Source: Escherichia phage vB_EcoM_VR25. From it: DNA of 64,000 bases. This document shows positions 3,858 through 42,420 of the stretch, piece by piece. Every line of letters begins with the position of its first letter. Positions within the stretch are counted from its first letter, which is position 1. The translations under genes and the position numbers were made by a program. The DNA is taken from sequence record NC_028925.1, one strand, 5' to 3'. The notes below the pieces were generated by a model. That model was not told the DNA's origin and ran no database searches. It saw only the letters and a program-made list of their open reading frames with translations.

Positions 3858-4198
3858 TTCGCGCCCTTAACAATTTTCAGGTCAACAAAACCTTTCTTGC
3901 GTTGGGAATTCATGCGCTTGATGGCTTTGTCAGAAACTTCTTTGTTTTCACGTGGGAGCGGCAGACCAAACGCTACTACATCAAATTCATTCAGGATATA
4001 CTGGACAAGGCTTTCACGAATACGTGCTTTACCCATTGTCTGACCTTCTGCAATAATCAGTTTCTGTACATCGCCTTCCCATTGGTCCAGAATCTCAGGA
4101 GTAACGAAACCAGATTTCATCAGAGTGTTGACTTTAGCAAATGCGAAATTAGCGATGGTGTTAGTGATAGATGCAGTCATGATATATTCCTCAGTCAA
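3854..4198 (-). CDS. Hypothetical protein, 114 aa
   Basis: Track ORF; overlapping stop-start with the downstream ORF. Confidence 0.45.
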   Translation of the reverse strand: MTEEYIMTASITNTIANFAFAKVNTLMKSGFVTPEILDQWEGDVQKLIIAEGQTMGKARIRESLVQYILNEFDVVAFGLPLPRENKEVSDKAIKRMNSQRKKGFVDLKIVKGAK

Positions 4199-4247
4199 TT
4201 AAAATTTTATTATCCTTGGGGTCATTATACCATGACCCCGTTGGTTT

Positions 4248-4445
4248 TTATTGCGCTTTAGCCGCTTTCCAGCCTTCATACATCATTGCGGCTGATATTA
4301 ATATTGCTCCTGAGCAACTTGAATACTTGTGATTCCAAAACCATTTTAGAAAAACTTCGTCATCAATACCTTGAGCTATCATATTTTCAAAGAACTGACG
4401 ACGAGATTCGGCAACTCGCTGCGATAATTTAGATTCAGGATTCAT
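4248..4445 (-). CDS. Hypothetical protein, 65 aa
   Basis: Track ORF. Confidence 0.4.
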   Translation of the reverse strand: MNPESKLSQRVAESRRQFFENMIAQGIDDEVFLKWFWNHKYSSCSGAILISAAMMYEGWKAAKAQ

Positions 4446-4577
4446 TTAAATTTTCCAATTGCCATTTTCATCAATGAATTTAATCCAGTCATTTACTGAC
4501 CACTTAGTTGTATCACCTTTTGGAGTAACATTTAAAGTGTATAACCCCTGCTTAAAAAACATTCGTTTGATATTCAT
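4446..4577 (-). CDS. Hypothetical small protein, about 43 aa
   Basis: Internal ATG of the track ORF 4446..4670, preceded by GAGGAAA SD; the upstream ORF stop (TGA) sits inside that SD. Confidence 0.35.
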   Translation of the reverse strand: MNIKRMFFKQGLYTLNVTPKGDTTKWSVNDWIKFIDENGNWKI

Positions 4578-4584
4578 ATTTTCC

Positions 4585-4878
4585 TCAGCTATAACGGTAA
4601 CATTCATTTGATTTACGCTTTGCAACACGATGAGAAGTATTATAATCAAAATCATCCTCAACGTACACATCTTTTTTCAACTGGCGAACTTCTTTACGAA
4701 GTTGGCGGTTCATTTCATTCTTAACTTCAGAATCAACACCACGCATACGCTTCCATTTGTCTGAACGGAAGATATTTTCTTCAACTTGTTCCTGACTTAC
4801 ACCATCAGGTGCCTGACGACGCCCTGAATAACAAAAATCTTTTACAGACAATTCTTTACGACGAATAGTTTTACCCAT
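4585..4878 (-). CDS. Hypothetical basic protein, 97 aa
   Basis: Track ORF; Lys/Arg-rich. Confidence 0.45.
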   Translation of the reverse strand: MGKTIRRKELSVKDFCYSGRRQAPDGVSQEQVEENIFRSDKWKRMRGVDSEVKNEMNRQLRKEVRQLKKDVYVEDDFDYNTSHRVAKRKSNECYRYS

Positions 4879-5135: not shown

Positions 5136-5314
5136 AATTTAGGTCCTTTTGCAACTGTATTGAACAAGCTACGGTCACACACCATCAACGGAGCATCAGG
5201 CCATTTCAAAGGACGATACCATACATCTTGGTCAGTCACTTTGGTTACCTGTACAGGATAGCCATTTACCGAATAATACCGGTCAACTTTAATTTCTTTA
5301 TCTTGAACAACCAT
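5132..5314 (-). CDS. Hypothetical protein, 60 aa
   Basis: Track ORF; ATG at 5314 preceded by GAGGAAAACAAA leader of the conserved early-promoter cassette. Confidence 0.45.
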   Translation of the reverse strand: MVVQDKEIKVDRYYSVNGYPVQVTKVTDQDVWYRPLKWPDAPLMVCDRSLFNTVAKGPKL

Positions 5315-5345
5315 TTTGTTTTCCTCATCAGTAGTTGATGGGATA

Positions 5346-5375
5346 ATGATACATCATTCAAAGGGGCTTGTACAC
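5346..5375 (-). promoter_or_regulatory. Early promoter with stem-loop (PeSL-like cassette)
   Basis: Minus strand: GGGG-TGTACAAG-CCCC hairpin carrying a -35-like GTGTAC, 18-nt spacer, -10 TATCAT, then conserved leader TATCCCATCAACTACTGATGAGG. Confidence 0.5.
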
Positions 5376-5381
5376 CCCTTT

Positions 5382-5699
5382 TTAATCTTCAATTAAGTCC
5401 TGGTCATACCCCAGGGATATCAGTTTTGTTTTAAAGGCAGGAATATTGGTCATTTTTTCATCATTGACAAAAATCACCGGGTAACGAATGTTAAGGGTAG
5501 GATATCCAGCACGCTTAGCCAGAGACACGATTAAAGGCCTGTCATAAGCGATTTCAGAGCCTTGTTTGTTAAGGACTGAATAGAATGTATAAGGAAGGTT
5601 TAAGGAGCCCAGAAGGCTCCTGATGTGCATACAACCAGGGCATCGACCGACTTCTTCGGGGATACCATAGATTTCAATCTTAGTCGAGTTTTGGCCCAC
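5382..5699 (-). CDS. nrdH: NrdH-like glutaredoxin/thioredoxin-fold protein (CxxC)
   Basis: 105 aa; KIEIYGIPEEVGRCPGC... redox CxxC near the N-terminus; sits at the T4 nrdH position upstream of nrdG/nrdD. Confidence 0.55.
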   Translation of the reverse strand: MGQNSTKIEIYGIPEEVGRCPGCMHIRSLLGSLNLPYTFYSVLNKQGSEIAYDRPLIVSLAKRAGYPTLNIRYPVIFVNDEKMTNIPAFKTKLISLGYDQDLIED

Positions 5700-11443: not shown

Positions 11444-12432
11444 TTCAGCAGCTCCAGAGCCTGTTCCAGTTTATCCAGACGATTGGTTGATTCTTCCCAA
11501 AGTCGCTTGGCTTTTGTATAATCTTCAGTTGCCTTTTTATTAACAGCAAGAGCTTCATTATACGCTGTTTCCAGGGCAACAATTTCAGGCGCTTTTTGTT
11601 TCACTGGTTCATTATTCAGATTATCAATCAGGTCTTCAAGGGTAGTAACTTCTTGCGGTGCATTCATAATTTCCTCACTTTTCTTTTTATAGATTTCTGC
11701 ATCAGTTGGTTGCTTTGCGCATTTAACTTCGCGTAATGTCACCACAATTTTCCAACCTTTCCAACCATGAGAACTGGTGATAGGGTCAACTTTAATTTTT
11801 TCAACAGTGTGCATATAATTAAGTGCACACTGCAGCTGATGAGTGAGCGTGCATGCAACATCAAGATACTTTTTGATATTTTCAGGTGTAGCCTCTGGAG
11901 TATAGAACTCATGCTTAACTGTAATAATTACCTGATTTTCACCAGAATCTTTAACCTTTACCATGTTCTCAGCCAGATGGTAGATAGTGCGAAAATCACC
12001 GCCCATCAATTTTGTTGCTGATTTTATGATAGACATTTTGTTATTTCTGAATTCACGCGCCCAACTGTTTGCAAATTCAGAAACAGTATAGCCTTGTTTA
12101 TCAAGATAGTATTTTTCAACATCACCAAACCAATGATACCCAATTGTACCTTTACCACGTCTGGATTCAACACCAAACTTATTAAGAAGGTCTTTATTAA
12201 CCAGGTATGCCAGGACTCGGGAACCTTTAAAAGTTTTCTTGATATCAGCATTACCAGCACGACTCGCAATAGTCGCGATGTCTTTCTTAAAACGACCGGA
12301 TGCAACAATCGATGCGTCAATCTGATTTAACCAGAAATTGATAATCGAAAGGATAGCCGATTCACCTATTAATGGTTTTACTTTTGCATCGATAGTGGTG
12401 TTAAAGGCCTGGATATATTCGTTACGTGTCAT
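11440..12432 (-). CDS. Hypothetical protein, 330 aa, C-terminal coiled coil
   Basis: Track ORF, ATG start preceded by GAGGAG and a canonical early promoter; C-terminus ...[14 protein letters not shown]. Confidence 0.6.
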   Translation of the reverse strand: MTRNEYIQAFNTTIDAKVKPLIGESAILSIINFWLNQIDASIVASGRFKKDIATIASRAGNADIKKTFKGSRVLAYLVNKDLLNKFGVESRRGKGTIGYHWFGDVEKYYLDKQGYTVSEFANSWAREFRNNKMSIIKSATKLMGGDFRTIYHLAENMVKVKDSGENQVIITVKHEFYTPEATPENIKKYLDVACTLTHQLQCALNYMHTVEKIKVDPITSSHGWKGWKIVVTLREVKCAKQPTDAEIYKKKSEEIMNAPQEVTTLEDLIDNLNNEPVKQKAPEIVALETAYNEALAVNKKATEDYTKAKRLWEESTNRLDKLEQALELLK

Positions 12433-12459
12433 AGTGTTCTCCTCATAAAGTAGGAATTC

Positions 12460-12489
12460 ATTATACTCCCTCCATCCTTGGAAGTAAAC
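12460..12489 (-). promoter_or_regulatory. Early promoter (sigma70-type, T4 early consensus)
   Basis: Minus strand GTTTAC-18 nt-TATAAT, then leader and GAGGAG SD 6 nt before the ATG at 12432. Confidence 0.6.
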
Positions 12490-12490
12490 A

Positions 12491-13408
12491 TTATTTTAAT
12501 GCTTTGATTGCAGCTTGCAATTTATTGCGTTGCGTTTCCATGTTCTTGATGCGATTCAGGACATCCTGGATACCCTTCTTCTCATCTTCAATCAGACCAT
12601 TTAAGCGGTTGACTGATTCCTTGATAGCATCCGCATGATAGCTCTCAATAGGCTTCATTGTTGGGTTAAAGATTTCAAGAGAGCTGGATGGCTGGACATT
12701 CCATTTGTACATATTTTTAACGTCCAGTGGTGAAATTTTGGTCTGGTCATAAGATTTAAATTGACCTGCAAATGCTGGGCCATATGCCGCAGTAGGGGTA
12801 CGTTCCATTTCTGGTTCCTTTTTCTCTTGATAAGGGGCATAAGACAAAAGATATTCTTTAGTCAATTTAATATCAATTGCTATAGTTTTAAGGAATTTTT
12901 CCGTTTGGTGGATATAATTTGTATCTTCATCAAACGTGTACGATTCAACAGCATGGCGCATATAAAACAGCGCAATACCCATAACCTCTTTAAAGTTATG
13001 ACAAAGAGCAACATCGCCCTTGGTGGTTGGTTTGAACTTAATCTGTACACCATCATTCTTGATATTGATAATCAAGTTATTGGAGTTAAAATTATAGTTC
13101 TTGATGTTAACCGGAGCTTTGCGAATACGAAATCCGCCGGCCAGAATTTCCTTGATACTCTTACGAACCGTGGCACCAAACAAAAACGCTGGGCGGCGGC
13201 AGTAATCATTCAGAGAGTTAATTCTTACAATACGTTGACCATACCCCTGGGTAGCAGAACCTGATTTGATTTTGCCAAAGTTAACCAAAGAATTCATTGC
13301 GATAAGACGAGTCACACGACCGTCATGTGGTTCATAACTACTAGCATATTCAGCGCGAGTTTTAATTTTCATATCATAGTCCAAATAATTTTTCATAAAA
13401 TTTAGCAA
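12491..13408 (-). CDS. Hypothetical protein, 305 aa, C-terminal coiled coil
   Basis: Track ORF; C-terminus ...NMETQRNKLQAAIKALK. Confidence 0.55.
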   Translation of the reverse strand: MLNFMKNYLDYDMKIKTRAEYASSYEPHDGRVTRLIAMNSLVNFGKIKSGSATQGYGQRIVRINSLNDYCRRPAFLFGATVRKSIKEILAGGFRIRKAPVNIKNYNFNSNNLIINIKNDGVQIKFKPTTKGDVALCHNFKEVMGIALFYMRHAVESYTFDEDTNYIHQTEKFLKTIAIDIKLTKEYLLSYAPYQEKKEPEMERTPTAAYGPAFAGQFKSYDQTKISPLDVKNMYKWNVQPSSSLEIFNPTMKPIESYHADAIKESVNRLNGLIEDEKKGIQDVLNRIKNMETQRNKLQAAIKALK

Positions 13409-14569: not shown

Positions 14570-15094
14570 TTATGCGAGAACCGTCTTTAAACGCTTTTCA
14601 AACTTCTGAAGGAGTACCTGGCGCTCTGCTCTTTGTTTGGTATAGGTTTCAATACGCTCTGAAGTGAGATTGTATTGTTCATTAACTGATTCCCGCATGA
14701 ATTCAGGAATCTCTTTACATGCTTTGATTTCATTGAACTTATCAAGCACTGCTTGTTGTTCAGCAATCAGACCATCATAATATTGGATATCTGATTTGAT
14801 GTTCTGTACATCAGATTCAGTAGGCATATTTTTCTTTGCTCTTGCCGCCTGGTACTCAGCATTAGTCTCTCTTGACCAGAACAAAGAGCGGTTTTTGTTA
14901 GTGTTTTTATACACATCAATAATACCAACTGAATCAACATTCACAATCCAGTTCCAGGCGTTTTTATAAGTTTGACCACCTGATACTGTAATCTCACCTG
15001 CACAAGCAACATCATTAAAGAACTTGCTTTGTGCTTCTGATTTAAAATTACCATTATTGTAATTAATCAGATTAAAGATTGATTTGGCTTCCAT
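14570..15094 (-). CDS. Hypothetical protein, 174 aa
   Basis: Track ORF, ATG start. Confidence 0.5.
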   Translation of the reverse strand: MEAKSIFNLINYNNGNFKSEAQSKFFNDVACAGEITVSGGQTYKNAWNWIVNVDSVGIIDVYKNTNKNRSLFWSRETNAEYQAARAKKNMPTESDVQNIKSDIQYYDGLIAEQQAVLDKFNEIKACKEIPEFMRESVNEQYNLTSERIETYTKQRAERQVLLQKFEKRLKTVLA

Positions 15095-15132
15095 TTTATT
15101 CTCCCGTTTGTTTGGTAACTCAGTATGGGAAC

Positions 15133-15162
15133 ATTATACGTCTATCCCATACTGATGTACAC
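15133..15162 (-). promoter_or_regulatory. Early promoter cassette with conserved leader
   Basis: Minus strand GTGTAC-18 nt-TATAAT then leader GTTCCCATACTGAGTTACCAAACAAACGGGAGAATAAA before the ATG at 15094. Confidence 0.5.
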
Positions 15163-15164
15163 AT

Positions 15165-15467
15165 TTAATTAAAAGTTCTTTCAGTATTTTCACCACTGAA
15201 CCAGGCGCTCTTAACGGCTTGTTGCGCGCGATGAATCTGTTCAGCCATATAAACACCAAGGGCCTCTGCTTTTCTTGTCCTGTGGGCTTCTGCGGCGACC
15301 ATTTGCAGCTTATCCATCATGATAAGAGCTTTACATTTCTCCTTCAGAGCATAACGTTTCTTCTCTTCTGGAGTTTTGACCATTCCTCTTAACTTGTGCA
15401 TTTTCAACTTAAAATGGTCAGCAGATTTAAGACATGCATCAATCATGTCAATTTCATACTTTTTCAT
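15165..15467 (-). CDS. Hypothetical protein, 100 aa
   Basis: Track ORF. Confidence 0.45.
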   Translation of the reverse strand: MKKYEIDMIDACLKSADHFKLKMHKLRGMVKTPEEKKRYALKEKCKALIMMDKLQMVAAEAHRTRKAEALGVYMAEQIHRAQQAVKSAWFSGENTERTFN

Positions 15468-15473
15468 AATTCC

Positions 15474-15680
15474 TCACTTGCGACGACGTTTTGGTAATGG
15501 TTTAGGGAAGAACATTGCTTTACCTGCAGGGGTCAAAGTCACACGCAAAGCATTACCAATACCAAGGGATGCTTTAACCAGACCTTTGGCTTTTAACTCG
15601 CCAAATGCTTGACGTTGTTCAGGGTCGCGAGTGTTAACCATCAGACCTTTTTCACCAGCAGCTTTGATTAATTCTAACAT
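15474..15680 (-). CDS. Hypothetical basic protein, 68 aa
   Basis: Track ORF, ATG start; C-terminal KPLPKRRRK tail. Confidence 0.45.
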   Translation of the reverse strand: MLELIKAAGEKGLMVNTRDPEQRQAFGELKAKGLVKASLGIGNALRVTLTPAGKAMFFPKPLPKRRRK

Positions 15681-15720
15681 TTTATTCTCCAGTTTTTATT
15701 TGGTAACTCAGTATGGAATC

Positions 15721-15750
15721 ATTATGTCTCATGACCATCTGGTTGTACAC
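15721..15750 (-). promoter_or_regulatory. Early promoter cassette with conserved leader
   Basis: Minus strand GTGTAC-18 nt-CATAAT then leader GATTCCATACTGAGTTACCAAATAAAAACTGGAGAATAAA. Confidence 0.5.
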
Positions 15751-15769
15751 TACTTTTTAAAATAAAAAA

Positions 15770-15791
15770 GGACCCCGAAGGGTCCTTTGTA
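15770..15791 (-). terminator. Rho-independent terminator
   Basis: GGACCC-TTCG-GGGTCC hairpin followed by U6-rich run on the minus-strand transcript, directly after the stop of ORF 15792..16076. Confidence 0.7.
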
Positions 15792-19358: not shown

Positions 19359-19561
19359 TATTCCACCACATATGATAATGAGAAAATTGCTGATGAAAGA
19401 TGAGTAGCATCTTCTTCACACAGTTCAAATGGAGCTTTCTGCAAGAGCTCAACCACTTCTTCATCAGTGGCACGGTCCATAAAGATTGCATAATCGTTAA
19501 GATAGATAACAACCTCATCACCAGTATTAACTGCATCAATCTTGATGTTCTTAATTCTCAT
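19358..19561 (-). CDS. Hypothetical protein, about 67 aa
   Basis: In-frame ATG at 19561 preceded by GAGGAG and the conserved promoter/leader cassette. Confidence 0.4.
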   Translation of the reverse strand: MRIKNIKIDAVNTGDEVVIYLNDYAIFMDRATDEEVVELLQKAPFELCEEDATHLSSAIFSLSYVVE

Positions 19562-19589
19562 TGTATTCTCCTCAGTAGTTGATGGGATA

Positions 19590-19619
19590 ATAGTACACCC
19601 TTTTGATGAGGATGTAAAC
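19590..19619 (-). promoter_or_regulatory. Early promoter cassette
   Basis: Minus strand GTTTAC-18 nt-TACTAT followed by leader TATCCCATCAACTACTGAGGAG. Confidence 0.5.
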
Positions 19620-19629
19620 CCCCTAAATG

Positions 19630-19656
19630 AAAAAAGGTCCACCCGAAGGCAGACCT
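19630..19656 (-). terminator. Putative rho-independent terminator
   Basis: Imperfect GC-rich hairpin AGGTCTGCC-TTCG-GGTGGACCT followed by U5 on the minus-strand transcript, right after the stop at 19663. Confidence 0.5.
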
Positions 19657-23214: not shown

Positions 23215-23673
23215 TTAGATATAAATCACTTTTGTGCTAATTTTTCCTTCCAGACGATTAGAGTTAACAAACGCCATACGACAACACATGGTTGGAGACT
23301 TCCCAGGAAGAGCTGGGTTAACTGTCATTCCTAACCATAAGTTCTTGTCTGTGATTTCCAGACGAAGTGGACGGTAGTTCACATTCGGGTCAATTTGTGC
23401 TTCAACTTCCGGGAGTGGTTTCATCTCCAGGAATTCAACAATTTCTTTTACATGTGGTGTGATTTTTCCAAACAAGTCAAAAACATATTGTTCGTCAATT
23501 TCACGTTGGATTGCACGGTCCAACAGGTGTGGACTGTACTTAATGAAGAATGCTTCAAGGCCTGCTTCTTTACAAGCCTTGTTGATAGCATTATTAATTT
23601 TGAGGAACTCCGTTTCAAAAATACGACGAAGTTTATTGCGGCGAATGTAAACACTTGAATCGATAGTAGTCAT
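23215..23673 (-). CDS. regB: RegB site-specific endoribonuclease
   Basis: ATG at 23673 preceded by AAGGAG; MTTIDSSVYIRRNKLRRIFETEF...SPHLLDRAIQREIDEQYVF... closely matches T4 RegB; track ORF starts further up at GTG. Confidence 0.85.
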   Translation of the reverse strand: MTTIDSSVYIRRNKLRRIFETEFLKINNAINKACKEAGLEAFFIKYSPHLLDRAIQREIDEQYVFDLFGKITPHVKEIVEFLEMKPLPEVEAQIDPNVNYRPLRLEITDKNLWLGMTVNPALPGKSPTMCCRMAFVNSNRLEGKISTKVIYI

Positions 23674-23700
23674 GATTATCTCCTTTTGTTTGATGGGATA

Positions 23701-23730
23701 ATCATAACTCATTTCAACCTGCTTGTACAC
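23701..23730 (-). promoter_or_regulatory. Early promoter cassette upstream of regB
   Basis: Minus strand GTGTAC-18 nt-TATGAT then leader TATCCCATCAAACAAAAGGAG. Confidence 0.5.
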
Positions 23731-24035
23731 TATTCTTTAAAACGAATTAGCTTATTTAATGACTGTGAGACTTCAGCACGAACAGCGTGTAAATTCTTAA
23801 GCTGTTCAAGGCGTTGCTCGTAGTAAGCAATTTCATCTTCTTCAAGACAGTCGTTTGAATCTTCTTTAAGATAGTTCCCGTAGTCCTGAAAGGCCTTACG
23901 AATAACTTCCTGGAAATCATCTAGACTTTGAATTTTTGGCTGTTTCGATGTGAATCCAAACGGATTGGAATCATTTATGCGGCGTTGAGAAGCGGTTGAT
24001 AACTCATAACCAAAACCAGAATTAATCTGCGCCAT
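23730..24035 (-). CDS. Hypothetical protein, about 101 aa
   Basis: Track ORF 23730..24077 starts at GTG; first ATG at 24035 ([16 protein letters not shown]...). Confidence 0.45.
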
Positions 24036-25490: not shown

Positions 25491-25790
25491 TTAAAAAGAA
25501 CCAGAGCCTTTAATTGTGTTCTGGCGACCTTTATTTTCGAATTCAGAATGGTCGATTTCGTATGCTTGTGCTACGCCAAAGGCCTTTTTAACTTTAGATA
25601 AAGAACCTTTAGATGTAACAATATTAAAAGTATTGCCTTTGGTAAAATCAACCAAATCCACTTGCACACCCTGTTTACCGAGGCTTGCTACAATAGCATC
25701 AACATATTGTTGGTCTAAATTGCCTTGAACCCCAATTTGAAATGCTTTAGGAACTTTGGCTTCTGTGATAAATTCTTGATAAGTTAACAT
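25491..25790 (-). CDS. Internal-protein-like protein with N-terminal capsid targeting sequence (CTS), 99 aa
   Basis: Starts MLTYQEFITE, matching the T4 IP capsid targeting sequence MKTYQEFIAE; ATG start. Confidence 0.6.
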   Translation of the reverse strand: MLTYQEFITEAKVPKAFQIGVQGNLDQQYVDAIVASLGKQGVQVDLVDFTKGNTFNIVTSKGSLSKVKKAFGVAQAYEIDHSEFENKGRQNTIKGSGSF

Positions 25791-25819
25791 TATACACTAT
25801 CCCATCATAAAGTAAACAG

Positions 25820-26083
25820 TTACGCTTTACCGCCAGAAACAATACCAAAGGTCTCAAAGTCCCATTCAATATCGTCAACATCAACTTTCTTACCAGCAAC
25901 CACAAATGCGATTTCGCGACGTTTTGCATAGGTAACAATTTCTTTGCCATCGCCGCCAAAGAAAGAATAACCATTGCGCTTCATGGTGCCAAAGTCTTCA
26001 GCATCACCAGCGAAGGCACGGACTTTAAAAGCACCAGTAGGAGCTTTAGCAGATTCAGTAATAAATTCTTGATAAGTTTTCAT
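25820..26083 (-). CDS. Internal-protein-like protein with CTS, 87 aa
   Basis: Starts MKTYQEFITE; ATG start. Confidence 0.65.
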   Translation of the reverse strand: MKTYQEFITESAKAPTGAFKVRAFAGDAEDFGTMKRNGYSFFGGDGKEIVTYAKRREIAFVVAGKKVDVDDIEWDFETFGIVSGGKA

Positions 26084-26411: not shown

Positions 26412-26458
26412 TTTATATTCCATGTTTGGTTGATAAAATCATTATACAACCTTTTTAG

Positions 26459-26875
26459 TTAAGCGTACACAGCTTTCCCATAGTATTTGTACCAGGTAGG
26501 CTTTTGAGAAATTTTCTCATTCAGTCTGGATTGACTGATTTCAATTGACCAGATTGATGGTTGATAATCATTCTTCCATTCATCAGGAATATCATTTAAA
26601 TCTTGGGTAGAAATATCTTTTATATTAAACCCTCGCTTTAAACATTCAGCAATAAGTTCTTGATGGCGGTTTTTAAGGAACAAAAGCTTATCATAAAAGA
26701 AGGTGACATGACCAGTTCCTAAAAGAAAAGATGATGGGATTTTAAAGTCAGACACCTTTTTACCATTTTGTACATGCTTACGAACAGCCCCAAACACGCG
26801 AGGAAGCTCACGGTATTCAGCCATAAGGTGTTGGTCAGCAAGTTCAGATACCAGGGTTAAATTAATGCGAGTCAT
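26459..26875 (-). CDS. denV: Endonuclease V (pyrimidine-dimer DNA glycosylase) DenV
   Basis: 138 aa, ATG start; [35 protein letters not shown]... near-identical to T4 DenV. Confidence 0.95.
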
Positions 26876-26904
26876 GTTTGTTCCTCCAAGTAGTTGATGG
26901 GATA

Positions 26905-26934
26905 ATAATACATCAATACGAGGAGGTTGTAAAC
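26905..26934 (-). promoter_or_regulatory. Early promoter upstream of denV
   Basis: Minus strand GTTTAC-18 nt-TATTAT then leader TCCCATCAACTACTTGGAGG; -35 overlaps the upstream stop. Confidence 0.55.
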
Positions 26935-27216
26935 TTATTTTGTGGAAGCAGCCGAGATATATTTTTCAAGACGCTGTTTCATCAGCGAGCCGTTCTTAGC
27001 GATTTCTTCCGGTTTATCGCACATACGCAATAGAGCTTCAAGCTTAGTGATATCAGATGTCCGCTCAAATTTGCGAGTATCTACCTTACTAGCAAGTTCG
27101 GAAATACGCGCTAACAGACTTTCGGCTTCTACCAAAGCTGTGCCCAGCTTAGTTGCAAATGCGTCAGTAGCTTCATTAAGAGTGGTCACGGTCAAAAATT
27201 CATTATAGGTTTTCAT
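26935..27216 (-). CDS. Internal-protein-like protein with divergent CTS, 93 aa
   Basis: Starts [10 protein letters not shown]...; ATG start; 3-prime to gene e as ipIII is in T4. Confidence 0.55.
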
Positions 27217-28995: not shown

Positions 28996-29684
28996 TACCA
29001 GCCCTCCATAGGGAATTCCAGATATACTTGAGCGTTAACGCGGATTTCATTTGTAATCTTTTTAACACGGTCGGTATTACGAGACACACGACCAAACCAG
29101 CGCCAACCGTTACCAACTGTTTTCGTTCCAGTGTGCCAGGTCTGCCAGTTGAATTCACACAACGTGCGGTCAGGAGCTTCTTGAACTAAAAGTTCACCTG
29201 CCTTGATTTTTTCCAGAACTTCCTGGTGCCACCGGCGATAGATAAGTTCGCCATCAGGAATCTGACTGAATTCTGAAGTTCCCAGAGCAAAATTAGTAGG
29301 GCAAACAGAAGCGTTAACCAGACCCAGGATGTGTTCAGAATGGTAACGAGGGTTATCATAATCAGGTTGTCCTGCTGTAATAAAATGTTGTCCTGCTGGA
29401 ATATCTGGACGTGGTACATCATCATGGTGGAACCCTGGAATAGCAGGATACCAGCCAGGCATTAACATGTGGACACGGGAATCAAATACAATATCAGGGC
29501 CACATTGCCAATCTTCAGGCAGGTTTTCAATAAAGCTACGAGTAATAGGACCACCGTGTTTATGAGCAAAATAAGCATCGCAATTAAAGAACATAGGCTC
29601 ATTTTTGATTTGGTCATTACTGATATCTTGAGCAAATTGGCCAACTTCACGCATTTTACTATTAAAAGTTTTTGAGCTATTCAT
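28995..29684 (-). CDS. Possible Fe(II)/2-oxoglutarate-dependent oxygenase, 229 aa
   Basis: ATG start; candidate facial triad HHD (in PGFHHDDVP) and a distal His in WHTG about 100 residues later, followed by RVS (possible RxS); motif reading only. Confidence 0.35.
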   Translation of the reverse strand: MNSSKTFNSKMREVGQFAQDISNDQIKNEPMFFNCDAYFAHKHGGPITRSFIENLPEDWQCGPDIVFDSRVHMLMPGWYPAIPGFHHDDVPRPDIPAGQHFITAGQPDYDNPRYHSEHILGLVNASVCPTNFALGTSEFSQIPDGELIYRRWHQEVLEKIKAGELLVQEAPDRTLCEFNWQTWHTGTKTVGNGWRWFGRVSRNTDRVKKITNEIRVNAQVYLEFPMEGW

Positions 29685-29743
29685 AATATTTTCCTCATTG
29701 ATTGTGGGACCATTGTGTCATAGTCCCACTTGGATGTACACAC

Positions 29744-30703
29744 TTATTTTGAAAAAGGTTTAATCAAATGTTGGTTAGCCTTGAAACGTTTAACATAGTC
29801 TTCGCGACCCAGGGTGTTGTACATATTAACCACTTCCTGGTAATGTTCCCAGGCATACTCACGGAACCATCCAGAAGTAATGGAGGTACAGACTTTTTCT
29901 AGTGCAATATGGAAGCTCACGGATGGAGATATATTGAACTCATTAGGAACCTGCGAACGCTCCAGAGCAAGTACACATGCTTCTTCATAAACCCCTGCCA
30001 GTTTAATAACATCAGGAAGTGCTTCAAATTTTTCACGTGAGGTCATGACTTCTGAATCATCCTTCATATAGAACTTATATGCAGGCTTATCAGCAAGCGC
30101 CACGGCCTCGTGGATGGAGTCATGGTCAAGGGTATAGATTGTATCATTAAAGAAAGTTTTCTTGCCCACGTCTAGTTTAGGGTGACTATATGACAGTGTT
30201 TCTGTCTGACGTTGTAACATAATTTTCTGCAGTTCATCATTAAGAACAACACCCTTATTACGAAGGTAATTAATATGGCTCATGGTCTTCAGGAAGAATG
30301 GATTGTTCTTCAGGTAACGATGAGACAATTTAATTGCCAGACAAATATCAGGGGTCGCCCAATAAAAACCAGATAGACGGTCTTTCTGAATATTTGCCTT
30401 CGCATATTTGAGCAGACGATAACTGGAGGTAAAATCTTCCTCTTGTAGCTCATCAGTCAACTCACGAACACTTGTCAGGGCGCGGACGATATATGCTTCA
30501 AAATAGGTTTCTTTACCGTTGTGCATACACTTAAAAGCTTGCACATCTGGGTTATCCACATGAACATGCTGCCCCATCATCTGGGTTTTAAAGCTGTTCC
30601 AGGAACCCTGGTCAGCGATAAAATCCCAATCAGAGTTTTCAATTTTCTTACTTTCAATCAGACCGGCGTTATGTAACGCGCGAGAACCAATAACTAACAT
30701 CAT
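29744..30703 (-). CDS. Hypothetical protein, 319 aa, weak NTase-like N-terminal motif
   Basis: ATG start; N-terminal VIGSRALHNAGLIESKKIENSDWDF (GS ... DxD with a longer-than-usual spacer); family not recognised. Confidence 0.5.
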   Translation of the reverse strand: MMLVIGSRALHNAGLIESKKIENSDWDFIADQGSWNSFKTQMMGQHVHVDNPDVQAFKCMHNGKETYFEAYIVRALTSVRELTDELQEEDFTSSYRLLKYAKANIQKDRLSGFYWATPDICLAIKLSHRYLKNNPFFLKTMSHINYLRNKGVVLNDELQKIMLQRQTETLSYSHPKLDVGKKTFFNDTIYTLDHDSIHEAVALADKPAYKFYMKDDSEVMTSREKFEALPDVIKLAGVYEEACVLALERSQVPNEFNISPSVSFHIALEKVCTSITSGWFREYAWEHYQEVVNMYNTLGREDYVKRFKANQHLIKPFSK

Positions 30704-30971: not shown

Positions 30972-31172
30972 TCAGATAGGACCGTAAAGGTATGTCCAAC
31001 GTTTAACGAAAGAAACTACTTCTTCCAAGGTATCGCAAACCTCTGTAGTGCCCGGAACGCCATCGCCACTGATGGTTACTTTAATGCCATCTGAAACTTC
31101 CTGGAGATTAACCTCCAGTTGGTTGGCTTTGGCTTCGTTCAGAACTTTGATTAATTCGTTTGCGATAGACAT
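30972..31172 (-). CDS. Hypothetical acidic protein, 66 aa
   Basis: Track ORF. Confidence 0.4.
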   Translation of the reverse strand: MSIANELIKVLNEAKANQLEVNLQEVSDGIKVTISGDGVPGTTEVCDTLEEVVSFVKRWTYLYGPI

Positions 31173-31236
31173 TTTTATTCTCCTGTTCTGATAACGTGAT
31201 TGTCATCAGTTGATAAGAGAATAGTAACATGGTTTT

Positions 31237-31581
31237 CTAGAGTTGTATACCACTTCTGCAATATTCTAAAAATAATTTATTGTTGTCTACTGTATCCCAC
31301 CGGCGCCAAGATGAATTCCAGACCAAAGCATTATCACCACAATCGTTAAGCTTGAAATGGTCGTAATACATAGCTATACGCTTGGTCTCGTCAGCGGAGA
31401 ATCCTAATATAGACTCGCCATGAGTATGGTACATATGGTGATGCATGGAGAGGTCGCATTTATAAAACGTTTCACGCTTACCGCGGACGAACAAGAATGC
31501 TTGTCCATCCATATAAAATTCTTTATCTGTTTTTAAAAGATATTTGAATACTGAATCTCTGTGCATAGGTCCTCCTATCAC
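31237..31581 (-). CDS. Hypothetical His-rich protein, about 109-114 aa
   Basis: Track ORF; contains HHHMYHTHGE. Confidence 0.4.
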   Translation of the reverse strand: MIGGPMHRDSVFKYLLKTDKEFYMDGQAFLFVRGKRETFYKCDLSMHHHMYHTHGESILGFSADETKRIAMYYDHFKLNDCGDNALVWNSSWRRWDTVDNNKLFLEYCRSGIQL

Positions 31582-34114: not shown

Positions 34115-34708
34115 TTACTTAAGTGAATTGATGTATTCTTCAATGTCAGCGGATGTGGTATCCACACCAACCTGTGGACCTTTGAAGGTTTCAACACGCA
34201 TCAGAGTGTCTTCAATATCAATCTTAGTCAATGCAGCGATTTCAACAACATCATCTGCGGTTGCAATACCTAGGGCAGACACCTTACGGGTTTCGCGGAT
34301 GTATTCCAGTTTAACAGCTAGTTCCTGACGAGAGTCATCCAGCTCTTTAACTTTCAATTTAATTTCATTACGCATTTCAACATAATCATCTGCCTTCTTA
34401 CGAAGTTGTTTAGCAGTGCGACGATACAGGAGACCCAGTTTAGCATGGACCTGGACATCAGCACCATCAGCAATCAGTTTACGAATTTCACGCTCTTTTG
34501 AAGCGGCGAGCTGGTCTTTTTCATTCGCTAACTCGCGGATGCGTTTTTCTTCATTAACAGACTTAACGTGGGCAGTCTGGAGCTCAGTAATCTTGTCAAT
34601 CAGGGTAGAAGCCGCTTTAGTATATTGGTCTTCAATAGACAGGTTTTGTGCCATTGCAGTACCCAGTTTGGAGCGGATGAATTCAACAAGTTTCTTTAAA
34701 GTATTCAT
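34115..34708 (-). CDS. PspA/IM30-like coiled-coil protein, 197 aa (tentative)
   Basis: ATG start; long heptad-like helical sequence of PspA-like length; assignment from composition, not a verified match. Confidence 0.35.
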
Positions 34709-34784
34709 GGTATTTCCTTCAGTTGGTTAATGTTTTATTATCCAGGGAACATACTATCATGTTCCCGTTAAAGCGTACACTGAT

Positions 34785-35090
34785 TTAGATTTTATTTTCC
34801 TGCACACCATAGTAAAGTTCATCAGACACGATATTCAGGATGCGGCGAACATATTCATCATGGTAACGACATTCAAAATCAAATTCAACTGTAGTTTCTG
34901 CTTCACGAGTAAACTTAACAACCACATTCAGGTGGTTAACAACTTTAGTAAAGCTGTCAGTAAAGAATTCTTTTGCTACTGCTTGTTGTACTTGTACTTT
35001 GAACTTAGTGTTGCGAATCATGTTTTCAGCTGATGCGAAATTACCAGTTTTATCAAAGTCAACAAGCGCCAGGTTGATGATGAATTTCAT
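34785..35090 (-). CDS. Hypothetical protein, 101 aa
   Basis: Track ORF, ATG start preceded by the conserved leader. Confidence 0.45.
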   Translation of the reverse strand: MKFIINLALVDFDKTGNFASAENMIRNTKFKVQVQQAVAKEFFTDSFTKVVNHLNVVVKFTREAETTVEFDFECRYHDEYVRRILNIVSDELYYGVQENKI

Positions 35091-35129
35091 TTTATTCTCC
35101 AGTTTTATTTGGTAACTCAGTATGGAATC

Positions 35130-35159
35130 ATTATGCCTTAAAGCAGGGGGCTTGTATAC
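35130..35159 (-). promoter_or_regulatory. Early promoter with stem-loop (PeSL-like cassette)
   Basis: Minus strand GGGGG-TATACAAG-CCCCC hairpin carrying GTATAC, 18-nt spacer, CATAAT, then leader GATTCCATACTGAGTTACCAAATAAAACTGGAGAATAAA. Confidence 0.5.
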
Positions 35160-35171
35160 CCCCTTTTTGAA

Positions 35172-35615
35172 TTAAATTTCAAATTCTTTGCGGAAGTTGG
35201 AAGCATAAGATTGAACAGATGCTTTGTTGAATCCAAACTCACGCACAATCATATCAATAACAGCTCTGCGAGCAGCACCATTAGACATATTAACAGTTTT
35301 GAACATATCATAGCATAAATCTTTGTTGCTCATACCGGAGCGTTTAGGTGCCTTACGCTCAGCTTTTGGTTCAGCTTTAGGAGTAGGTTTAACTTCTGGT
35401 TTAACCTGCCCATCATTCAGACCTTTAAAAATTTTACCTGCCAGAGTTGCCAGTTTAGCAGCTTCACCACGAGTGATACCAAATACTGCCGGGTTAAATG
35501 AAATACCTTCAGCTGTCAGACGTTTGAAGAACATACGCGCTGCGGATTGCGCTTCAGCTTCAGAAGAGTTGTTTAATGCCAGTTTAACGTACTTAACCAG
35601 TTTTGAAGTTTTCAT
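35172..35615 (-). CDS. Hypothetical protein, 147 aa, C-terminal ...VQSYASNFRKEFEI
   Basis: Track ORF; C-terminal 35 residues paralogous to ORF 36068..36493. Confidence 0.5.
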   Translation of the reverse strand: MKTSKLVKYVKLALNNSSEAEAQSAARMFFKRLTAEGISFNPAVFGITRGEAAKLATLAGKIFKGLNDGQVKPEVKPTPKAEPKAERKAPKRSGMSNKDLCYDMFKTVNMSNGAARRAVIDMIVREFGFNKASVQSYASNFRKEFEI

Positions 35616-35656
35616 TTTATTATCCCGTTTGTTTATTTGGTAACTCAGTATGGAAT

Positions 35657-35686
35657 CATTATGCCTTAGTTAAATTCCAAAGTACA
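35657..35686 (-). promoter_or_regulatory. Early promoter cassette
   Basis: Minus strand GTGTAC-18 nt-CATAAT then the same conserved leader. Confidence 0.5.
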
Positions 35687-35688
35687 CA

Positions 35689-35985
35689 TTAATTTTCAGA
35701 AGTTGGGAAATAAACTTCAAAGTCATACATGTTTACTACTGCAGATGCAATTGCTTGATACTGCATACCCAAGAAAGTTTTCTTGTTCTTGCGCCATAAG
35801 TTAACCATTTCTGTTTTGATGCATGCCAGAGAATAGTTGGATGCAGGATACTGTTTGATGATTGCAACAACTTCTTCAGAAGCAGTTTCGCACAATTCAT
35901 TCAGTTGAGCTTCAATTTTAGCAGAAATGATTGCTTTGTTTTCTTCTTGAGCTTGTGTAGCGTGCCATGCAGGTGCGTTAAACAT
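35689..35985 (-). CDS. Hypothetical protein, 98 aa
   Basis: Track ORF. Confidence 0.45.
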   Translation of the reverse strand: MFNAPAWHATQAQEENKAIISAKIEAQLNELCETASEEVVAIIKQYPASNYSLACIKTEMVNLWRKNKKTFLGMQYQAIASAVVNMYDFEVYFPTSEN

Positions 35986-36026
35986 TTTATTCTCCAGTGT
36001 TTTATTTGGTAACTCAGTATGGGATA

Positions 36027-36055
36027 ATTATACACTATCCCACCTGGAAGTAAAA
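36027..36055 (-). promoter_or_regulatory. Early promoter cassette
   Basis: Minus strand TTTTAC-17 nt-TATAAT then conserved leader. Confidence 0.5.
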
Positions 36056-36067
36056 CACTTTTCTCAA

Positions 36068-36493
36068 TTATTTTTGAGCTTTGCGGAAGTTGGAAGCATA
36101 AGACTGAACAACAGTCTTTTTGATATCATGGGTGGTAACCAGAACATCAATCAGAGCGCGGCGTGCTGCATTATCATTCATATCAATTTCTGCAAATGCC
36201 TGGAAGCAAATGTCACGGGCGTTACCAGATTTGGACTGGATTTTTTCTTCTTTAACTTCTTCAATTGGGAATTCAATCATTTCAGCTTGGATTAATTCAA
36301 TGATGGATTCTTTTGACTGTTTGGTGTTTACCTTCAGTTCAGAATTAAGGGACTTAGCGATGGCAACAATCTGGGTTGAAGTCAGATGGATAAGTGCATC
36401 TTCACGAATACAGATTTCACATACTTCGTCGGCAACCATTTTGTTAGTGATGCGGGTAACAGAGAATGCAGAGGTCAGGGTCAGAAAGTTCAT
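36068..36493 (-). CDS. Hypothetical protein, about 141 aa, C-terminal ...VQSYASNFRKAQK
   Basis: Internal Met (MNFLTLTSAF...) consistent with the promoter cassette at 36544-36574; paralogous C-terminus to 35172..35615. Confidence 0.45.
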   Translation of the reverse strand: MNFLTLTSAFSVTRITNKMVADEVCEICIREDALIHLTSTQIVAIAKSLNSELKVNTKQSKESIIELIQAEMIEFPIEEVKEEKIQSKSGNARDICFQAFAEIDMNDNAARRALIDVLVTTHDIKKTVVQSYASNFRKAQK

Positions 36494-36543
36494 TTTATTT
36501 CTCCAAAGTTTTGTTTGATTCAGTGTGTAACTCAGTATGGAAT

Positions 36544-36574
36544 CATTATGCACCCGGTCAATTCGGATGTACAC
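36544..36574 (-). promoter_or_regulatory. Early promoter cassette
   Basis: Minus strand GTGTAC-18 nt-CATAAT then leader GATTCCATACTGAGTTACACACTGAATC. Confidence 0.5.
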
Positions 36575-36610
36575 TACTTTTTGAAGAAAATTTCAAATTT
36601 ATTCGGGGTA

Positions 36611-36640
36611 TAAAAAAGCCCCAACCTTTCGGAAGGGGCT
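36611..36640 (-). terminator. Rho-independent terminator downstream of the tRNA/small-RNA region
   Basis: AGCCCC...GGGGCT stem (6 GC-rich bp, 12-nt loop) followed by U6 on the minus-strand transcript. Confidence 0.55.
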
Positions 36641-38186: not shown

Positions 38187-38372
38187 TTACTCACCTTTAG
38201 ACATTTTATCCATAACGAAAGAGATTGAACCAATTAAGAATGCAACTACTAAAGAGATTATATTCTCAGAAGTTGAAAGCATATTCAACATAAAGCCAGC
38301 AAACATGCTAAAACCAAAAGCGGTAACAGCAACAAGGGCAGTAACATTTCTAATTAATTCACAACGTTTCAT
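38187..38372 (-). CDS. Small membrane protein, 61 aa
   Basis: ATG preceded by GAGGAG and promoter cassette; two hydrophobic segments. Confidence 0.45.
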   Translation of the reverse strand: MKRCELIRNVTALVAVTAFGFSMFAGFMLNMLSTSENIISLVVAFLIGSISFVMDKMSKGE

Positions 38373-38400
38373 TTTATTCTCCTCATTAGTTGATGGGATA

Positions 38401-38431
38401 ATTATACACTATCCCATATCTAAAAGTACAC
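38401..38431 (-). promoter_or_regulatory. Early promoter cassette
   Basis: Minus strand GTGTAC-19 nt-TATAAT then leader TATCCCATCAACTAATGAGGAG. Confidence 0.5.
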
Positions 38432-38665
38432 TTATTTTTTACGGAAAATTGATTTATACTTGTTAGCCCATTTCTCGATAACTTCTGCCGGACCCTGGAT
38501 AACAAAATAGTCCCCAAACTCTTCACCGCCGAGCTGACCGTAATTATCTAAGGCGTCGCGGAGAGTTCCATAAGGCATTTCGCCCATTTTATCTTTCTTG
38601 CCGGTGTAAATGAATTGCACTTTAACATCAGCAGTTTCATTAATAAATTCTTGATAAGTTTTCAT
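38432..38665 (-). CDS. Internal-protein-like protein with CTS, 77 aa
   Basis: Starts MKTYQEFINE; ATG start. Confidence 0.65.
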   Translation of the reverse strand: MKTYQEFINETADVKVQFIYTGKKDKMGEMPYGTLRDALDNYGQLGGEEFGDYFVIQGPAEVIEKWANKYKSIFRKK

Positions 38666-38690
38666 GTTGTCTCCAGTAGTTGATGGGATA

Positions 38691-38722
38691 ATTATACTGC
38701 ATTTATCCCATCGTGTACATTA
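38691..38722 (-). promoter_or_regulatory. Early promoter cassette
   Basis: Minus strand -10 TATAAT with weaker -35 (ATGTAC), then leader TATCCCATCAACTACTGGAGAC. Confidence 0.4.
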
Positions 38723-39019
38723 CATTTTTGAACCGCGAATTACACCATAAGCGGCGAAGTCGTCAGTGATATTTTTAGGGGTGTTCTTACCAGTTTCAAT
38801 ATATGCAATGCTGGATTTCTGACTAAATGAGGTAATTTTATTATAGTTAGAGTCAAGGAAGGTATAACCATTTTTACGCAGCTGGTCAAAGTCTTCAGCG
38901 TCGCCTTTACCTTTGAAGTCAACCCATTTGTATGTGTTTTTCTTCTGAAGGCCCAGAGGCCAAGTTTTTGCTTCTGCCAGGTAATTATTTTCTACCAAAA
39001 ATTCGTGGAACGTTTGCAT
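38720..39019 (-). CDS. Internal-protein-like protein with CTS, 99 aa
   Basis: Starts MQTFHEFLVE; ATG start. Confidence 0.6.
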   Translation of the reverse strand: MQTFHEFLVENNYLAEAKTWPLGLQKKNTYKWVDFKGKGDAEDFDQLRKNGYTFLDSNYNKITSFSQKSSIAYIETGKNTPKNITDDFAAYGVIRGSKM

Positions 39020-39308: not shown

Positions 39309-39641
39309 TTATTTATACAGTTTAGCTAGTTCTTTACGTCCGCGAGCAGACATAATGAATTGTTCATCACCAATTTTGAAATAAGCCATACCGCCGTCAA
39401 CAGCGATGCCAATTTCTTTAGTACCTTCTTTGCCTTTCCACTTGCCACCAGATTTCAGGACAGCTTCAACTGCAGCTTTGGAATATTTGGACGTTTGAAA
39501 ACGTTCATTACCAATCTGAAAGAAAACACCATCTGCATTTTTGGATAAACCAAATTTCAGAGAGCCTTCACTATCATCAATTGATTTGGTTTCATTGATG
39601 GCGGATTCGGCTAAAAACTCGTTATAAGTCTTGATGTTCAT
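39309..39641 (-). CDS. Internal-protein-like protein with CTS, about 110 aa
   Basis: In-frame MNIKTYNEFLAE at 39641 preceded by GGAG; track ORF begins 11 codons upstream. Confidence 0.6.
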   Translation of the reverse strand: MNIKTYNEFLAESAINETKSIDDSEGSLKFGLSKNADGVFFQIGNERFQTSKYSKAAVEAVLKSGGKWKGKEGTKEIGIAVDGGMAYFKIGDEQFIMSARGRKELAKLYK

Positions 39642-39701
39642 TTTAACTCCGTTTGTTCGTGGGTGTAGGAACATAATACTGTGCCTACACTCATTTGTAC
39701 A

Positions 39702-40386
<685 letters not shown>

Positions 40387-41745: not shown

Positions 41746-42420
41746 TTATTTTATTAATGTGTTAAGTCTTAGCTTAGTCATAAACGGATAACGTTCCAAC
41801 ATTGGCTTTACCCAGTATCGAGGATGCAATTCCTTTTTATATGCTAGGACCAACTCTCGAGCTTGCTCGACGGTATCAACTCCGAAGTTTTTACACATTT
41901 CTTGCCTATCTTTTTCCCACCGGCGCTTTCTCAATTCATCCTGAATCTCTTTATTTTTAAAATGTCCATTATTGCGAGAATGTTTTGTGCCCTTGGTTGG
42001 ACTGTAATGTCTTCCTTTGACAAACCCATCCGGAACATCTTCCCATGGAAATAGTTTTATCGATTTGACACCATTAGTAAAGTAAACTTTACCGGTTTGA
42101 CTTTTAGAAATATTGTCAGCGTGTCTACGTCTTAACCAGCCAAATAATTTATTATTACGTTTCAAATACTTGCTTGACTGACTCATAGATGTGGCGGCAA
42201 AACTTAAACCTGGATTTGTAGGATATATTTTAACCAATAGTTGATGGGCTACATAATGTTCCTCGGGAGTCAAATCGACTAGGTTATCAGGAGCATTTGA
42301 ACCACCCATACATTTCGGAATGATGTGATGAGATTCTTTATATGAAATCAGGACCCTGTTACGGGCCCTTTCAATTAACGATGAATATATAAACTGATAA
42401 TTCAAAGTGAATTTCTCCAT
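41746..42420 (-). CDS. Free-standing HNH homing endonuclease, 224 aa
   Basis: ATG start; HNH motif [30 protein letters not shown]; inserted between genes 2 and 3; start overlaps the last 19 nt of gene 2. Confidence 0.8.

Follow-up and report, generated by a model that had tools for sequence, protein, structure and literature searches.

What is the short segment at positions 35,091 to 35,171 of a 64,000-nucleotide stretch of Escherichia phage vB_EcoM_VR25 (NC_028925.1), and why do close copies of it recur in front of other genes? The original prediction described a minus-strand module of early promoter, stem-loop and conserved leader, and compared it to the promoter-early stem-loop (PeSL) elements of T4-type phages. 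In the window, as we call the whole stretch, the segment is present as described. It belongs to a family of cassettes with the features by which Arbiol et al. 2010 and Comeau et al. 2014 define PeSLs at the sequence level: an AT-rich tract, a sigma70-type promoter, a stem-loop, and a Shine-Dalgarno sequence (SD) with a start codon. The assignment to the PeSL class, a kind of element already known, is thus supported. Very likely, the copies serve a VR7-like T4-type phage as immediate-early expression cassettes of the PeSL class, in which promoter, stem-loop, leader and recombination are combined. The description in VR7-like phages, the leader families, the link to the endoribonuclease RegB and the statistics are additions to this known kind.

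Layout of the promoter cassettes

The cassettes share one layout, consisting of an A-rich tract, a -35 box GTKTAC, a spacer of 17-19 nt, a -10 box, a stem-loop, and a short leader that ends in SD and ATG. From 4.2 to 39.7 kb, the minus strand holds about 21 cassettes, among them all 12 of the sites originally listed; the plus strand holds none. To score them we used a position weight matrix (PWM) of the core promoter, restricted to the upstream tract, -35 and -10 with the leader excluded, since an earlier leader-inclusive matrix was overfitted and was dropped. At a cut-off of 14 bits, this matrix returned 18 minus-strand sites compared to 0 on the plus strand, and three further cassettes (31250, 34780 and ~4240) were recognised by eye. 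A generic scan for sigma70 promoters and terminators was uninformative, with 55 promoter-like sites found and 52.7 expected. The hexamers follow the pattern GTKTAC, N18 (equivalent to TKTACA, N17) and a TATAAT-like -10; the claimed 18-nt spacer, counted from GTGTAC, is found at 15 of 17 sites. In most copies, the -35 is immediately preceded by an A-run such as ttcAAAAAgta. The leaders measure 17-51 nt and end in SD and ATG, with the exception of the truncated 25817 copy.

The copy in question (35088..35173) precedes a 101-aa ORF whose ATG lies at 35090. Read along the minus strand, the stop codon of the upstream ORF and an A-run precede a GGGGG...CCCCC hairpin (35145-35164, GGGGG-TATACAA-GCCCCC), which carries the -35 GTATAC (35159-35154) in its loop. 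After an 18-nt spacer follow the -10 CATAAT (35135-35130) and the leader GATTCCATACTGAGTTACCAAATAAAACTGGAGAATAAA (35129-35091), ending GGAGAATAAAATG. That the -35 often occupies the loop of a GC hairpin was overstated in the original prediction: this arrangement is seen at only three sites (35159, 5375 and, weakly, 19619), and a stem bracketing the -10 is dominant.

Two leader types recur, at the positions previously named for them. The type-1 core CCATACTGAGTTAC occurs exactly six times (0.3 expected), always on the minus strand, at 15.1, 15.7, 35.1, 35.6, 36.0 and 36.5 kb. The type-2 leader is found with at most 3 mismatches at 5.3, 19.6, 38.4 and 38.7 kb (0 expected), and looser copies, contained in the repeat families, are located at 23.7 and 26.9 kb.

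Early promoters of T4 are composed of UP, -35, TGn and -10 elements (PMC2988021), and these sequence elements are present at the cassettes. The T4 regB, denV, ipI-III and trna.4 promoters are positional orthologs of window cassettes with the same architecture; the T4 early-promoter sites, taken from the T4 segment examined, are predictions because the T4 record carries no promoter features. A literature search on VR7 early promoters found no paper. The PeSLs of T4/PST and KVP40/nt-1 (Comeau et al. 2014, PMC4122927) and the T4 early promoters (Hinton 2010, PMC2988021) share with the cassettes the -35 TTTACW, N17 and the -10 TAYWAT, and the AG(n)A...TC(n)T-type stems of the former, e.g. GGGATA...TATCCC, are found in the window as well. 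The PeSLs of RB49 and phi1 (PMC2839356) display the same composite order of AT-tract, promoter, stem-loop and SD-start; like the window cassettes, they cluster in front of ORFs of unknown function in the accessory early regions, and show deletions and insertions between tandem copies. In contrast to RB49/phi1, the window cassettes carry a T4-type -35 GTKTAC and not TTGACA, their stems are mostly of mixed sequence and not polyG/polyC, and the -10 with the leader, not the stem-loop, is the part most conserved and most often recombining. They also differ in lacking breakpoint enrichment over other gene boundaries.

Stem-loop, leader and putative RegB site

As the dominant structure, an inverted repeat encloses the -10; its arms differ from copy to copy. 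At least 7 different arm sequences occur, including GTGTAGG/CCTACAC, GATGGGATA/TATCCCATC, GTGGGAC/GTCCCAC, TTGATG/CATCAA, TGGAAT/ATTCCA, GGTTG/CAACC and TCAGTATGGGA/TCCCATACTGA. Of 17 window sites, 8 have a perfect stem of 6 bp or more across the -10 (0.9 expected) and 6 have one of 7 bp or more (0.2 expected), and the observed mean stem length was reached by 0 of 2000 shuffles or random genomic samples. When the segment from -35 to +22 was folded, z averaged -2.8 and was below -1.5 at 17 of 25 sites. Stems that enclose the -10 are likewise found in T4: predicted early promoters of the T4 segment carry a stem of at least 6 bp at 6 of 11 sites (0.66 expected), reaching 14 bp at ipII and 10 bp at ipI. 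In a non-redundant set from the genus, such stems are found at 10 of 24 sites compared to 1.2 expected. The PeSL concept is hereby extended to VR7-like coliphages with quantitative support from shuffle statistics and from the covariation of stems between copies. The bracketing of the -10 at first seemed new; it is the published architecture, as according to Arbiol et al. 2010 a PeSL stem-loop usually lies between the two boxes or overlaps the -10 (PMC2839356). One stem-loop of phi1 was shown there to act as a terminator.

Other arrangements are less frequent. Spacer hairpins are seen at 36574, 12489 and 19619, a classical terminator-like hairpin lies upstream of three cassettes (15750, 19619 and 36574), in two cases with a UUCG tetraloop, and about 4 of the 21 cassettes have no convincing stem. 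At denV, both hairpin arms are exchanged together between this phage and its relatives.

The copies become alike abruptly at the -10 and remain so up to the ATG. Paralogs are 0.36 identical in the spacer, which is chance level, and 0.87 in the -10 plus the first 24 leader bases. Among orthologs, identity amounts to 0.97 in the leader, 0.83 in the spacer and 0.80 in upstream DNA, so the leader is under stronger constraint than the spacer of its own promoter. Concerted evolution of the leader copies was considered and rejected: paralogs of the same genome (0.87) and of different genomes (0.88) are equally alike, and there is thus no sign of ongoing homogenisation. Every Gaprivervirus record holds 7-13 type-1 copies and Morganella phage MP1, of a different genus, holds 5; most other genera have 0-2, and the T4 segment examined has none, so that type 1 is multicopy only in Gaprivervirus and MP1. 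The MP1 copies, in which the core CATACTGAGTTAMC is conserved, sit at promoters that the MP1 paper predicted by MEME. One of them (record L011, 365-445) is a type-1-like cassette with a perfect 12-bp hairpin GGTAACTCAGTA/TACTGAGTTACC, whose 3' arm is the conserved leader core and whose 5' arm overlaps the -10. For type 2, the start ATCAACTAC is common to the window and T4. Among relatives, the type-1 leaders of the 68-aa and 174-aa gene families differ in the length of their A-rich part by whole CAAA(C/T) units, e.g. caaataaacaaacgaacaaacggag in TH55, which suggests replication slippage. The leaders are predicted to be unstructured.

The 3' end of the leader provides a link to RegB. The strong intergenic RegB/S1 cleavage consensus is GG*AGRAYARAA (Durand et al. 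2006; Uzan and Miller 2010, PMC3014915), and the last 11-13 leader bases GGAGAATAAAAUG are equal to it. Exact matches number 7, compared to 0.33 expected. At least 10 of the 11 positions agree in 8 of 21 cassette-led genes and in 0 of the 86 other genes of the region (p=6e-7), and GGAG SDs precede 12 of 21 cassette-led genes versus 13 of 86 others. As with the RegB/S1 sites of T4 (PMC3014915), the leader end GGAGAATAAAA corresponds to the consensus, lies in the SDs of early genes, and occurs together with regB itself (23215..23673, PF10715, E=3.8e-72), which has its own GGAG SD. Unlike those of T4, the window sites are putative ones, identified by sequence match, and the remaining cassettes fall below ten matching positions. 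RegB is predicted to cut the GGAG SDs of the cassette leaders.

Promoter activity, the role of the hairpin and cleavage by RegB are inferred to act together as follows. Host sigma70 RNA polymerase would recognise the A-rich UP-like tract, the -35 GTKTAC(A) and the TGn/-10, with a spacer of 17-18 nt, and transcription would start about 7 nt after the -10, a position suggested by the consensus and by orthology to mapped T4 promoters. The stem-loop, which brackets the -10 or less often brackets the -35, sits in the spacer or takes the form of a classical terminator just upstream, can form only in read-through RNA from upstream promoters, and its most likely role is hence to attenuate, terminate or cap such transcripts at the border of the next unit. 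The promoter's own transcript would carry the unstructured A-rich leader ending GGAG(A/U)AUAAAAUG, which combines a strong SD with the RegB/S1 consensus. Given this match, the phage's own RegB would inactivate the cassette mRNAs a few minutes into infection. The RegB link gives a coherent picture in which the units fire immediately and their mRNAs would then be destroyed.

A related arrangement is known from the hairpins of T4 e, soc, 49 and I-TevI that sequester the ribosome-binding site (RBS; PMC3014915). There, as here, the promoter lies inside the hairpin and only read-through RNA folds. These hairpins are resembled by denV and regB, where the SD is paired with an upstream arm. For denV, the pairing between the 5' part of the spacer (26905-26934) and the SD reads CCTCC/GGAGG in this phage and CTCC/GGAG in relatives; the spacer-SD pairing of T4 denV (near record position 65413), CTCCTGTAG/CTACAGGAG, covaries with these. 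For regB, folding of the read-through RNA predicts an occluded RBS in both this phage and T4 (accessibility 0.27 and 0.21). The internal promoters of e, soc, 49 and I-TevI are late, whereas those of the window are early, and the RBS of most cassettes is not occluded. Predicted RBS accessibility is 0.64 in promoter-initiated and 0.51 in read-through RNA.

Recombination between cassettes and competing explanations

Breakpoints and gene turnover were determined by comparing the window with nine relatives (L001-L009), 10 genomes in all. The repeats are not confined to one genome but are found in all relatives, where the ORFs they flank are subject to turnover. In TH40, TH15, TH41 and TH55, a chimeric cassette is found whose promoter half is that of the 36056 copy and whose distal leader comes from the 35687 copy; the crossover falls within CCATACTGAGTTACCAAATAAA. 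Exactly these four genomes are without the 98-aa ORF 35689-35985. The difference is a clean 369-bp unit between two cassettes, flanked by 22-nt direct repeats, and supplies a base-pair-resolved example of cassette-to-cassette recombination. Swaps of promoter halves are found in seven gene families, including denV and the internal-protein (IP) genes. The denV promoter half is unique to this phage, as all nine relatives diverge from 26901 and homology resumes just after the -10, while losses and gains of internal-protein genes occur between leader/targeting-sequence repeats with overlaps of 25-33 nt. Of 100 breakpoint clusters, 10 fall in cassettes, which take up 3.4% of the sequence (p=0.002), and the ORFs flanked by cassettes on both sides are variable among relatives in 5 of 5 cases (p=0.005). 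Since 22-45 nt of -10 and leader are nearly identical among copies, homologous recombination appears occasionally to cross over between cassettes, deleting, inserting or re-promoting small ORFs.

Several observations weigh against parts of this explanation. Breakpoints are borne by 8 of 17 cassette junctions and by 41 of 90 other gene boundaries (p=0.56), and an enrichment at cassette junctions over other gene junctions was rejected on these figures; variable genes are 15 of 32 adjacent to cassettes versus 23 of 75 elsewhere, a marginal difference (p=0.08). The leader type is constant per gene family in 9-10 genomes, and pairings of cassette and gene are mostly stable. The earlier proposal of modular gene shuffling is supported in part, by the ORF98 indel, the promoter-half swaps and the variability of doubly flanked ORFs, and does not extend to a general concentration of breakpoints. 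Because junctions are not enriched in breakpoints and pairings are mostly stable, the cassettes appear as occasional recombination joints and not as the main driver of plasticity in the genus. This tempers the PeSL concept, as most gene turnover in the genus takes place at ordinary gene boundaries. Concerning the stem-loop, orthologs show 0.065 substitutions per site in stems and 0.098 in unpaired positions, which is weak support for stem conservation, and many stem pairs are broken among orthologs, in a tally confounded by an indel at one locus; the substitutions include a few compensatory changes and many transitions that preserve G-U pairs. Most -10-enclosing hairpins have no U-tract and are therefore not canonical intrinsic terminators. 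The effect of the hairpin on RBS accessibility is no greater than that of shuffled upstream sequence (0.51 vs 0.53, p=0.54), and a general gating of the RBS in read-through RNA was rejected for this reason; the exceptions are regB in both phages and, by eye, denV. Finally, the RegB consensus accounts only for the last 11-13 nt of the leader and not for the conserved first ~24, which are 97% identical among orthologs.

Alternative origins of the repeats can be weighed against the same data. The repeats could be leftovers of tandem gene duplication, their upstream regions copied along and without modular identity, as ORFs 35172-35615 and 36068-36493 share a C-terminal domain (cross-hits of phrog_17275/9997/18416) and internal-protein genes have the MKTYQEF targeting sequence in common as well as the leader. 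However, the six type-1-led proteins belong to six different PHROGs, all of unknown function, and a Pfam search of these ORFs gave no hits; similarity is bounded by -10 and ATG, and the same leader precedes other genes in another genus. We regard duplication as very unlikely. A stronger role for exchange would make the cassettes dedicated mobile elements, for which excision and reinsertion of mini-circles, possibly by a stem-loop-specific recombinase, would be the main engine of turnover. The 369-bp unit between direct repeats is exactly as expected of tandem-cassette excision, several breakpoints lie in the hairpin loop or at the -10 (25785-9, 26901, 35662), all doubly flanked ORFs vary, and mini-circles were shown for phi1/RB49 (PMC2839356). 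The small share of breakpoint clusters in cassettes, the missing enrichment at junctions, the leader type fixed per gene family across 10 genomes and the missing homogenisation within genomes speak against it, no recombinase is implicated, and homologous recombination of the T4 type needs less than 50 bp of homology. Such mobility is quite unlikely. Pure convergence, in which each promoter and RBS was independently optimised to one consensus with neither common descent nor exchange, could invoke the strong functional selection on -35, -10, UP tract and SD in T4 early promoters (PMC2988021), but identical runs of 22-45 nt exceed any known motif, the chimeric cassette crossed over inside the shared leader, and the leader families are lineage-specific. 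It is the most improbable of these explanations, and we give it hardly any credence.

The conserved leader itself allows another reading, namely a cis-regulatory RNA or DNA operator for a specific phage factor, which would define regulons and would not be a generic strong 5' untranslated region. The first 24 nt after the -10 are far more conserved among orthologs than the neighbouring spacer and upstream DNA (80-83%) and are 87% identical among paralogs, the type-1 core is retained in MP1, and the mechanism by which T4 early promoters are shut off is still unexplained in the literature. On the other side, covariance models of Rfam, run at gathering score over the whole window, found two tRNAs only and matched no cassette to a family; the leaders are predicted unstructured, no candidate binding protein was identified, and the conservation could equally well be due to binding of S1 or to an influence of the initial transcribed sequence on promoter escape. 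We consider such an operator unlikely. In a more specific form, the segment from -10 to about +20 would be a DNA operator or RNA site through which a phage factor switches off or times subsets of early promoters, the copy-specific hairpin marking the same border in read-through RNA; this is rather a long shot, and if true it would bear on the shut-off of T4 early transcription. Under the PeSL-class explanation, the highly conserved first ~24 transcribed nucleotides stand out as a directly testable feature.

Cassettes and neighbouring features along the early block

The window shares 90-97% identity, in mosaic fashion, with the VR7, VR20 and TH-series coliphages of the genus Gaprivervirus, its full span being covered by no record; it is a mosaic VR7-like T4-type phage. 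Mapped onto the VR7 annotation, the minus strand is the usual T4 early block, comprising in order 46, 47, 55, nrdH, 49, nrdC, mobD, rI, tk, vs, regB, ip genes and denV, followed by e, nudE, e.x, tRNAs, ip genes, 57B, 57A, 1, 3, 2 and 4. The baseplate genes occupy the plus strand from 43.7 kb. Every cassette lies inside the early block, between gp47 and gp57B, and the baseplate module has none. Most cassettes precede small ORFs without Pfam hits. All features described below are on the minus strand unless stated otherwise.

The type-1 cassettes form two groups. Next to the copy at 35.1 kb, a cassette at 35613..35701 precedes the 147-aa ORF 35172-35615; a TGGAAT/ATTCCA stem brackets its -10, its SD is a GGAU variant of the RegB site, and a homology breakpoint of four relatives falls at 35662, at the -10. 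The copy in front of the 98-aa ORF (35983..36070) has a TGGGATA/TATCCCA stem around the -10. That of the 141-aa ORF 36068-36493 (36491..36588) carries its stem-loop within the spacer, CATCCG...CGGGTG, with a compensatory G-C to A-T change in one ortholog. About 40 nt upstream of this 36574 cassette, an intrinsic-terminator-like hairpin AGCCCC...GGGGCT with a T-run is located at 36611..36640. In the second group, the cassette of the nrdC.8-like 174-aa ORF (15092..15176) has a perfect 11-bp stem, the TCAGTATGGGA/TCCCATACTGA pair, around the -10. The cassette of the 68-aa ORF 15474-15680 (15678..15764) shows breakpoints at 15750, its -35, and at 15787-15794 in eight relatives; directly upstream of it lies a terminator-like hairpin GGACCCttcgGGGTCC with a C(UUCG)G tetraloop and T6 (15764..15785).

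Among the type-2 cassettes, that of the 60-aa, 55.6-like ORF (5312..5389) combines a -35 in the loop of a GGGG...CCCC hairpin with a TGATG/CATCA stem bracketing the -10. The cassette of the 67-aa ORF 19358-19561 (19559..19633) has a spacer stem-loop and an SD, GGAGAATACAA, that agrees with the RegB consensus at 10 of 11 positions; a terminator-like hairpin with UUCG tetraloop and T-run (19630..19655) lies upstream of this 19619 cassette. The type-2-like cassette of regB (23671..23744) is the positional ortholog of the experimentally described 'typical early promoter' of T4 regB, and the denV cassette (26873..26948) has a TTGATG/CATCAA stem around the -10. The tRNA.4-like 61-aa ORF is preceded by a cassette (38370..38445) with the stem ATGGGATA/TATCCCAT bracketing the -10 and an exact RegB consensus, orthologous to the T4 site at 73572. 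The cassette of the internal-protein gene 38432-38665 (38663..38734) has a 9-bp stem around the -10 and occurs with four different promoter/upstream variants among relatives.

The IP arrays at 25.5-26.5 and 38.4-39.7 kb carry repeats of promoter, leader and MKTYQEF-coding sequence. They are like the homology blocks of T-even IP genes (Repoila et al. 1994, as described in PMC2839356); compared with those blocks as summarised there, most window cassettes lie outside IP loci and have no shared coding part. One cassette of an internal-protein-type gene (MKTYQEF...) at 26421..26484 has a GGTTG/CAACC stem. A truncated cassette at 25788..25831 has its -10 TATAAT fused directly to the coding sequence of an internal protein: -10 and ATG overlap, the 3' arm of the hairpin is absent, and the protein begins MLTYQEF instead of MKTYQEF. 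This arrangement looks like a recombination scar, and the gene behind it could be expressed only from read-through RNA. At 39639..39716, a cassette with its own leader and a GTGTAGG/CCTACAC stem bracketing the -10 precedes an ORF (MNIKTYNEF...) whose true start is ATG 39641, behind the SD GGAG, yielding a 110-aa internal-protein-like product; the mechanical call at ATG 39674 overlaps the -10.

The remaining cassettes are more diverse. That of the 229-aa ORF 28995-29684 (29682..29755) has a GTGGGAC/GTCCCAC stem bracketing the -10 (z = -6.0) and, in VR7, a 651-nt insertion at its upstream edge. The nrdC.4-like 330-aa ORF has a cassette with a stem-loop in the spacer (12430..12503), and a weaker one (PWM 10.9 bits) of a 66-aa ORF at 31170..31264 combines a type-2-like leader with an exact RegB-consensus SD. 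A third leader type, GGATAATAAAAyATT..TAA...ACTGArGGAAATA..ATG, is common to two distant sites, 4180-4239 and 34708-34780, in each case after a -10 enclosed by its own hairpin. The latter belongs to the cassette of a 197-aa ORF (34706..34794), with the -35 GTGTAC at 34780 and the -10 TAGTAT enclosed by GGGAAC/GTTCCC; the former is an extended -10 site (TGgTATAAT) with no clear -35 (4178..4260), enclosed by GGGGTCA/TGACCCC. The least certain member of the family is a promoter-like site of 24 bits at 4575..4682, which lacks a shared leader and lies within the coding sequence of ORF 4585-4878, upstream of a 43-aa ORF.

Three further features were observed apart from the cassettes. The block 6192-8586, with ORFs of 605 and 156 aa, is labelled anaerobic ribonucleotide reductase in the annotations of relatives; VR7 and TH44 have 121-133 nt in its place, and in TH15 the replacement covers a larger stretch that includes it. 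A 219-aa ORF (41750-42407) located between genes 3 and 2 is missing, with a clean junction, in six relatives; its VR7 counterpart is annotated as a MobB-like mobile endonuclease, and it looks like a typical homing-endonuclease insertion. On the plus strand, a 24-nt unit is present in three tandem copies at 45794-45889, within the region aligning to VR7 gp5.

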